64,000 bases of DNA from Escherichia coli (GTDB lineage: Bacteria > Pseudomonadota > Gammaproteobacteria > Enterobacterales > Enterobacteriaceae), in assembly GCF_050920415.1 (NCBI RefSeq), contig NZ_CP169309.1; one strand, written 5' to 3'. This document shows, piece after piece, positions 56,324-57,690 of the stretch (its first letter is position 1; each line of letters opens with the position of its first letter). Under the pieces are notes generated by a model. It ran no database searches and was not told where the DNA came from. It saw nothing but the letters and a program-made list of their open reading frames with translations. The translations under genes and the position numbers were made by a program.

Positions 56324-57690
56324 TCAATCATCATCCTTGCAGTTGATAAGAATTTCTGCCTCTTTTACAACTATCTTATTACGTCCGGTTTCTTTCGCTT
56401 CATATAGTGCATTATCAGCCATTCGATAGATCTCATTCGGATTTAACGCACTTCCCTGAGTCACCACAGCGCCAATGCTAATCGTCACTTTTTGCGGTAT
56501 GGCGTATTCAGGATTATCGCCTGTCAAACGCTCTACATTTGCCCTTATCCTTTCGGCTAAAACTTTCGCGCTTTCAGTATCGGTCTCCGTCAGCAAGACG
56601 CCAAACTCTTCGCCGCCAACGCGTGCTAAAAGGTCATTTGGTCGTATGCTTTTCCCAATGATGCTCACCACTGTTTTTATCACCTGATCGCCAACCGGAT
56701 GCCCCCACGTATCGTTAACTTTTTTAAAGTGATCGATATCCATAATCATGACACAATAAGACGTTTTTTGGGCTGATGCTGATTGAGCCTTCAGTTCATT
56801 GAAAAAATAATTCCTGTTAAATATATTAGTTAATGGATCGCGATGGGCAATGTTCTTTGTTACTCGTAGCGCACTGAAAATATGGCACATAAATATTACC
56901 ATAACGGTTAATTTACTGACTACTTCAATAGTGCGGCTAATATACCAAGTGGACACACTATACCTGCTCATAAATAACAGAGAGATATTATACAGCACGG
57001 CACAGAAAGCAATCACTGATACTCCATTCCAGATATCACAGCGTAAACCATTAAAGTATAGATTAACCAAAAGCAAGATTAACCACATGAAAATCATTAT
57101 GGTAACATATGAGGTTTTCCAGACTACCTGACCATTTTCATTTGTTAACTCGGCAATATGTAAACTGTAGTCATCATAATGACTACTTAGCATGTGAGCA
57201 ACTGCCGCCCCCCCAAAAATAAAAAACAGGCTTATACACAATGTCATTTTTTTGGAAAAAAACAGCGTTTCTTATTGTTTTCACTAACTTTATTCACCAG
57301 CGCTAGCAATATTAACATGCACAAACTCATCTGACGAAACAAATAATAAATTGCAATATCATTTTGTACAACGCTGCTTATCAAATGCCCCTCAATAAAT
57401 TGCTGAATGATAATGACAGTTTTAACAAAGTAAATCAAACAACTCAGAAACGCTAAACTAAGTATACAGTTTGAAAATTGCACACGATCATAAATGAAAT
57501 ACAATTGCATGAAAATAAATGCAACGGTATCGATAAAAAATAAAGCAATCATAACCATTAGATAGGTTGATCGTGGAACAACCTCCTCAACGGTTGGCTG
57601 ATTAAACCAACTATTTACCAAAACGAATGCAAGCCCAAACAATAAGCTCACCAATACAGTACTACTAATTCCCAAATAGTCTTTTTCCAT
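56324..57690 (-). pseudogene. dgcT: Diguanylate cyclase DgcT (YcdT), reading frame interrupted; encoded as two ORFs (N-terminal membrane part 57244..57690 or ..57780, and C-terminal membrane + GGDEF part 56324..57247)
   Basis: The N-terminal ORF stops at 57244-57246 and overlaps the ATG of the C-terminal ORF (ATGA); the junction sits in T7-CC-A7 on the coding strand; C-terminal ORF carries GGEEF; one T added to the T7 run fuses the frames. Confidence 0.6.

Follow-up and report, generated by a model that had tools for sequence, protein, structure and literature searches.

The closest described counterpart of the gene analysed here is dgcT (ycdT) of Escherichia coli K-12, which encodes a diguanylate cyclase of 452 residues with MASE4-GGDEF architecture, a GGEEF motif and an RxxD I-site, and which lies divergent from pgaA, with tRNA-Ser and ghrA downstream. 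Frame-setting repeats that act as reversible ON/OFF switches by slipped-strand mispairing are a second point of reference: classical phase variation proceeds at 1e-5 to 1e-2 per generation. The DNA under study was a stretch of 64,000 nucleotides (the window) of E. coli contig NZ_CP169309.1 (RefSeq assembly GCF_050920415.1), in which dgcT shares with its K-12 counterpart the locus, the synteny, the domain architecture and both motifs, at 90.7% nucleotide identity; the locus corresponds to that of K-12 minus IS3 and ycdU. The two alleles differ in that the K-12 gene carries an interrupted T run (TTTATTTT), whereas the allele of the window, which encodes 455 residues when intact, descends from an ancestor with an uninterrupted run of eight T (T8) and is now frameshifted.

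The dgcT of the window (56324..57690, minus strand) belongs to the DgcT family as a pseudogene or split gene: it measures 1367 nt against 1368 nt for the intact gene, and all features of the family are present except a single frame. The favoured explanation, to which we assign a probability of about 0.85, is a genuine, inherited -1 frameshift that arose by slippage from T8 to T7 at an allele-specific hot spot in a weakly selected gene. There is nothing unusual in such a frameshift, and RefSeq already flags the gene 'frameshifted' for strain MFDS1022581; what is modestly new, as a further case of a known phenomenon, is that in the wider population T8 forms a hot spot specific to the allele, around which T7, T8 and T9 occur among clone-mates.

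The break in dgcT and its origin

Read directly on the minus strand, the sequence at the break is AAG AAA CGC TGT TTT TTT CCA AAA AAA TGA CAT TGT: on the coding strand, a run of seven T (T7, 57256..57262) is followed by CC (57255..57254) and by a run of seven A (A7, 57247..57253), placed as CC A_AAA_AAA UGA in the 0 frame of the T7 allele. The N-terminal fragment is an open reading frame (ORF) of 148 aa (57244..57690, minus strand) that covers transmembrane segments (TM) 1-4 of MASE4 and ends RCFFPKK-TGA; its frame reads VSENNKKRCFFPKK and then stop, i.e. it ends KKRCFFPKK. The C-terminal fragment (56324..57247, minus strand, 307 aa) begins MTLCISLFF and covers TM5-TM8 and the GGDEF domain. 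Its ATG (57247..57245) overlaps the TGA of the upstream frame (57246..57244) within an ATGA (57247..57244), and exactly 8 codons 5' of this ATG its own frame holds a stop, followed by ETLFFSKKM. The two domains are therefore not encoded in a single uninterrupted frame.

A preliminary description, made from the letters of the window and a list of its ORFs, had named the gene as dgcT, located the break point and proposed the repair by one T (...RCFFSKKMTLC..., about 455 aa), all three correctly. The C-terminal ORF with its GGEEF motif and its ATG overlapping the stop, the stop 8 codons before that ATG, the 452-aa length of K-12 DgcT and the divergent pgaA, which starts at 58281, were likewise found as it had described them. 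Its N-terminal ORF (57244..57780) was right at the end and wrong at the start: translation natively begins at the ATG at 57690 (MEKDYL...), in agreement with K-12 DgcT and with the annotation of the Prokaryotic Genome Annotation Pipeline (PGAP), so that the product has 148 and not 178 aa. The TTG at 57780, from which the mechanical ORF of 178 aa begins, was rejected as a start for the same reason.

When one T was added to dgcT of the window, a protein of 455 aa was obtained that is identical to a protein (P0031) from 418 public contigs. The repaired protein matched Pfam MASE4 (PF17158, residues 41-274, E = 5e-65) and Pfam GGDEF (PF00990, residues 282-439, E = 4.5e-50), and the called 307-aa product itself also matched both. 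Eight hydrophobic segments or membrane helices were found in the repaired protein by hydropathy scan, which placed the break in the Lys/Arg-rich cytoplasmic loop between TM4 and TM5 (NKVSENNKKRCFFSKKM). The GGEEF active-site motif (56603..56617, minus strand; RVGGEEFG, in the translation SIRPNDLLARVGGEEFGVLL) is preceded by an RxxD I-site, RPND; the A-site and the I-site are both intact (RPNDLLARVGGEEF).

The polarity of the change was established from relatives. Strain MFDS1022581 (NZ_CP169399.1) is 100% identical to the window over dgcT, which PGAP records there as a 'GGDEF domain-containing protein', pseudo and 'frameshifted'; compared with NZ_CP169399.1, the window has 2 single nucleotide polymorphisms (SNPs, at 58686 and 63001) and one fewer 181-bp repeat unit, and the two are sister assemblies from one clone. 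The dgcT allele of the window is divergent: at least 99% identity was found in 16 of 5,426 complete genomes, the others being at or below 95%. Over a 138-bp segment, the length expected of T8 was present in 13 of these 16 genomes, two (MFDS1022581 and N96) were one base shorter, and one was three bases longer, with G10 in place of a G7 run. Alignment with intact alleles, as the preliminary description had asked for, was carried out with five of the 16 genomes (the longer one included): all five read CGCTG-T8-CC-A7-TG and carry an intact 455-aa coding sequence (CDS). Parsimony over 31 loci placed T8 at the root. Because the relatives carry T8 and parsimony roots at T8, the allele of the window is a T8 to T7 deletion. 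Relatives ranked by 25-kb megablast were uninformative, the tandem repeats having split the best records.

A frameshift common by descent to MFDS1022581 and N96 was considered and rejected, as a divergence of about 0.9% over 39 kb separates the two strains and N96 has another tract sequence. In N96 (L003/L006) the tract, which aligns to window 57247-57263, reads CGCT-T9-CC-AAAACAA-TG: the length is the same (-1), with two extra substitutions (G to T and A to C) within 15 bp, and the N-terminal product is absent from the public protein collection. These substitutions could be a local mutation cluster that followed inactivation, or polishing errors.

Long-read-only assemblies are notoriously prone to errors at homopolymers of 7-8 bases, and the N96 assembly may itself hold errors, given the two odd substitutions in its tract and the absence of its product from the public collection. 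That the strain is truly T8 with an intact dgcT, and that the missing T is a homopolymer miscall, nevertheless appears extremely unlikely. At least 24 contigs (NCBI, ENA, Logan), produced by independent projects with different platforms and assemblers, contain the identical T7 allele; the sources of the T7 loci were genomes of isolates, assemblies of gut metagenomes and Logan assemblies of separate runs, and every T7 locus fetched reads CGCTG-T7-CC-A7-TGA. The exact T7 N-terminal fragment (P0016) was found in 19 contigs (35 index blocks) and the exact C-terminal fragment (P0002) in 55 contigs. The clone-mates of the window (L050, L052 and MFDS1022581) share T7 within 0-2 SNPs over 11.4 kb, and MFDS1022581, SRR12406392 and ERR10854136 have T7 in common with the window at the same distance. 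In the corresponding 64 kb of MFDS1022581, dgcT is the only annotated pseudogene among about 66 CDS, as it also is in 48 kb of N96, and the neighbouring A7, one base shorter than T8, has zero +/-1 variants on this allele. For the T9 variant, two assemblers run on the same reads (ERR636354) agreed. From these sequence comparisons, assembly error can be taken as effectively excluded for the T7 allele. The preliminary description had offered a sequencing indel and a genuine inactivating frameshift as alternatives; the many independent T7 assemblies and the clone-mates that share T7 contradict the former and support the latter.

The proposed sequence of events is as follows: replication slippage would have shortened the coding-strand T8 to T7; translation from the ATG at 57690 would then halt after 148 residues, in the TM4-TM5 cytoplasmic loop of MASE4; TM5-8 and the GGDEF domain would be left in the other frame, behind an ATGA stop/start overlap without a Shine-Dalgarno sequence; and tract variants would persist through weak selection on dgcT.

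Recurrent length change at an uninterrupted T run

The T8 run is a mutational hot spot, at which single T residues have been lost and gained repeatedly and independently, even inside single clones. When 3.9-kb haplotypes of the 31 loci were compared, identical haplotypes differed in tract length and at least 8 independent changes were required by parsimony; the haplotype of the window was found with T7 and with T9, and other haplotypes with T8 and T9 or with T7 and T8. Length polymorphism in both directions was also seen among near-identical strains over 11.4 kb: in clone A (0-2 SNPs), T7 (L045, L050, L052), T8 (L066) and T9 (L053, L056); in clone B (0-6 SNPs), T7 and T8; and in clone D (0-2 SNPs), T8 and T9. 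One pair from clone B, L046 (T7) and L064 (T8), has 0 SNPs over 11.4 kb and shares a derived pgaA nonsense codon. In a second, unrelated allele group (CGCAG-T8-C-A8-TG, the type of O78 strain 3), T8 was present in 14 contigs, T7 in 10 and T9 in 4; O78 strain 3 has T7 and is annotated as frameshifted.

These changes depend on an uninterrupted run. In mainstream alleles (K-12, O157:H7, p4A, DSM 101139) the run is interrupted, as TTTATTTT or TTTGTTTT, and T8-type alleles are confined to two minority allele groups (about 30 of about 4,200 complete genomes with dgcT). At the break site, index blocks of the K-12-type allele comprised 15,893 intact, 2 (-1) and 0 (+1) sequences, against 526 intact and 48 frameshifted for the T8 allele (odds ratio 725, p = 2e-68). 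Within the T8 allele, -1 and +1 products of the T8 run were found in 19 and 9 contigs, respectively, compared with 0/0 for A7 and, at the further coding-strand homopolymers 3' of the break, 0/0 for T6 (57226..57221), 0/1 for T5 (57219..57215) and 2/3 for G7 (57214..57208). All runs of at least 8 bases in the window are intergenic, and the ancestral T8 would be the sole such run in any CDS of the 64 kb. As a control for the neutral baseline, two intergenic runs were inspected, A9 (58203-58211) and a T10 downstream of dgcT; both were invariant within haplotype groups, in a comparison that is underpowered and uses loci picked for coding-tract variants.

Other length changes were recorded around the break. 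The G7 run (57208-57214), 35 bp downstream, is variable: G6 and G8 products were found in 2 and 3 contigs, and 2020CK-00188 (L008) has G10, which is in frame and adds one Gly. Three SW0716xx genomes (e.g. L012, SW071611), annotated as frameshifted, are one base longer in the adjacent T/G runs. Among mainstream alleles, dgcT frameshifts in the same 60-bp segment comprised an A7 to A6 change in O157:H7 FRIK2455 (L060), a 7-bp TTTGTTT duplication in strain 602354 (L063), and, in L040/L041, a TTTATTTT whose TTTT is shorter by one T, one of these records being a National Collection of Type Cultures (NCTC) assembly with an extra C nearby. The A9 run (plus strand, 58203-58211, 70-78 nt upstream of the pgaA ATG) measures 9, 8, 7 or 6 between haplotype groups; its position in the dgcT-pgaA intergenic region is probably that of the pgaA leader.

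According to Sharma et al., genes of E. coli are depleted of A7 and U7 runs whichever the frame, plausibly owing to the risk of slippage and indels (PMC4066793), and the indel rate depends on homopolymer length according to Foster and colleagues (PMC8510543). In the literature on E. coli, a general statement of length dependence was found, and explicit indel rates per run length were not; nothing specific was found that links dgcT/ycdT to a homopolymer hot spot or to phase variation.

A rate was estimated by calibrating tract events against SNP events in clones A, B and D, with a crude correction for the deliberate sampling of variants. The tract changes about 200-700 times as fast as the per-site substitution rate. 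With a substitution rate of 2e-10 per site per generation, reportedly that of Lee and colleagues (PNAS, 2012), this amounts to roughly 4e-8 to 1.4e-7 per generation.

The same data bear on whether T8 is a contingency locus, that is, a selected and reversible ON/OFF switch that creates heterogeneity in DgcT-dependent signalling by cyclic dimeric GMP (c-di-GMP) next to the pga operon. The repeat is coding and its length sets the frame (in frame with T8, out of frame with T7 or T9); losses and gains are both seen, recurrently and within clones; and the break falls at an ATGA overlap within a loop. On the star tree of clone B, parsimony calls for reversions from T7 to T8 or, failing these, for repeated forward mutations. 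The L046/L064 pair, with its shared pgaA nonsense codon, needs one reversion or one extra forward event, and either fits. Selected switching is nonetheless distinctly unlikely in our judgement. The rough rate lies orders of magnitude under that of classical phase variation; most E. coli alleles by far lack the uninterrupted run, the mainstream ones having it interrupted, so that the repeat is not maintained across the species and there is no conserved design; the run merely encodes Phe-Phe; the tract state is stable across several clone-mates; and decay of the pga genes in some of the same strains fits relaxed selection. Of the slippage-prone, phase-variable tract that the preliminary description had put forward as a third alternative, recurrent T7/T8/T9 change within clones is borne out; high-frequency reversible switching is not, at about 1e-7 per generation and with the run missing from most alleles.

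In these lineages, one allele-specific T8 run lies behind most dgcT frameshifts; where dgcT lacks the run, it is almost never broken at this site. A difference at the synonymous level, TTTATTTT against TTTTTTTT, alters the evolvability of the gene, of which this is a clean natural illustration.

Residual activity, selection and surroundings

Inherited inactivation of dgcT by slippage has several points against it. The T length in the source strain of the window rests on its assembly and clone-mates; the contig and index-block counts contain clonal expansions and do not represent independent events; and the rate estimate corrects only crudely for the biased sampling of variants. Loss of function is what we infer from the broken frame, the GGDEF domain with its GGEEF and RxxD motifs being intact and an in-frame ATG overlapping the stop, and Shigella diguanylate cyclase pseudogenes with stops before GGDEF still produce c-di-GMP via internal starts (PMC11327459).

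The last of these points favour an allele that is split but not dead, in which T7 would still give diguanylate cyclase activity through the C-terminal fragment, -1 ribosomal frameshifting or transcriptional slippage. By one possible route, the 307-aa TM5-8-GGDEF fragment would be made by reinitiation at the ATGA and might re-associate with the 148-aa N-terminal fragment; the location of the break in the cytoplasmic TM4-TM5 loop is in keeping with this. By another possible route, a -1 shift at CC A_AAA_AAA UGA would yield a full-length ...RCFFPKKMTLC... protein with a single Ser to Pro change: A_AAA_AAA and U_UUU_UUU (in UG U_UUU_UUU CCA) are canonical X_XXZ_ZZN heptamers that only the T7 allele has in the 0 frame, and a 'savior indel' combined with low-level compensatory frameshifting is a recognised phenomenon (PMC5009743). 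Activity of this kind is, on balance, rather unlikely. No Shine-Dalgarno sequence was seen before the ATG, inspection of the upstream sequence having revealed nothing like GGAGG; no significant downstream RNA stimulator was found after A7 (fold z = -1.56; 14/200 shuffles folded as well); and heptamers without a stimulator shift only about 2-10 times above a background of 0.055%, well under 1% (PMC4066793). The C-terminal fragment would also lack half of the MASE4 sensor domain, and DgcT is scarcely expressed in K-12. As a candidate programmed -1 frameshift site, the two-frame arrangement is not conserved, most relatives having a single in-frame ORF. Judging from the sequence, standard decoding cannot give the full-length cyclase, which would be absent or present in trace amounts only.

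The two alternatives can be joined: T8 would then be a low-frequency reversible switch with leaky OFF states, i.e. a graded c-di-GMP contingency locus, in which T7 would leak via -1 ribosomal frameshifting at A_AAA_AAA_UGA or reinitiation at ATGA, and T9 via transcriptional slippage. We consider the joint reading, leaks included, as doubtful as the contingency locus by itself.

An inactivated gene under weak selection remains the preferred account. CsrA repression keeps DgcT of K-12 below detection (PMC5635695), the presence of the pga-ycdT region varies and the region tends to be lost by attrition (PMC4951805), and pgaA or pgaB has been damaged independently in some T7 relatives; weak selection on dgcT is inferred from these three observations. 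In detail, pgaA has a nonsense mutation at codon 67 in L014, L044 and L049 (T7 strains of haplotype hapC) and at codon 61 in L016, L046, L030 and L064 of clone B, where a T7 and a T8 member both carry it, and pgaB is split into 272 + 394 aa in L048. This suggests that the pga-dgcT module is decaying in parts of the lineage. In the window itself pgaA (58281..60704, plus strand), the first gene of the divergent pgaABCD, is intact, with 807 aa; besides pgaABCD, the neighbours of dgcT are tRNA-Ser(GGA), ghrA-ycdXYZ and the csg operons.

On its 3' side, dgcT adjoins a tandem array of 181-bp units (window 55658-56320; 3.7 copies, 98% identical) that runs from the 3' end of tRNA-Ser(GGA) (window 55589-55676) to the dgcT stop codon. 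Each unit has a hairpin and a T8/T10 terminator-like tract and matches RtT RNA at 41-42 bits, below the gathering score of 45; an 'RtT sRNA' is annotated at the array in one relative, and the mechanical ORFs of 89-157 aa over the array are artefacts of the repeat. Strains differ in copy number, with 285, 648, 829 or 1009 bp between dgcT and the tRNA. In four T8 relatives (L035, L038, L069 and L071), a phage-type integrase and an island (DUF3987, AlpA and a gene for a large NERD/UvrD-like helicase) lie directly 3' of dgcT, which indicates that the tRNA-Ser/repeat region serves for integration. Beyond pgaD and outside the window, phoH encodes 354 aa in the clone of the window, and in several relatives (L054, L055, L057, L058, L065, L072 and others) is called as two ORFs of 98 + 262 aa or with a shortened product of 262/307 aa.

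That the clone of the window is without full-length DgcT matters when c-di-GMP signalling or the capacity for PGA biofilms is deduced from the genome. The public T7, T8 and T9 clone-mates are ready near-isogenic sets for the study of DgcT, a poorly understood cyclase.

Comparison with known systems

The contingency loci and slippage pseudogenes of Neisseria, Haemophilus, Campylobacter and Bordetella resemble dgcT in having a coding mononucleotide run, +/-1 polymorphism among close relatives, and both gains and losses. The dgcT run differs from the contingency loci of these genera in that it has only 8 bases, is missing from most alleles and changes at about 1e-7 per generation, against 1e-5 to 1e-2.

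In dgcE, dgcQ and dgcN of Shigella flexneri (Ojha et al. 2024, PMC11327459), as in dgcT, the GGDEF domain is intact behind a premature stop that is followed at once by an in-frame Met. The Shigella pseudogenes make c-di-GMP, whereas activity of the dgcT fragment is putative and argued by analogy; dgcT itself is deleted in S. flexneri 2457T (PMC11327459).

The -1 frameshift sites of insertion sequence (IS) elements and dnaX share with T7 dgcT a 0-frame X_XXZ_ZZN heptamer at which a -1 shift enters the downstream ORF, with a stop directly after A_AAA_AAA. They differ from it in that T7 dgcT has no stimulatory structure or Shine-Dalgarno-like element, and is an unconserved arrangement left by a recent deletion accident.

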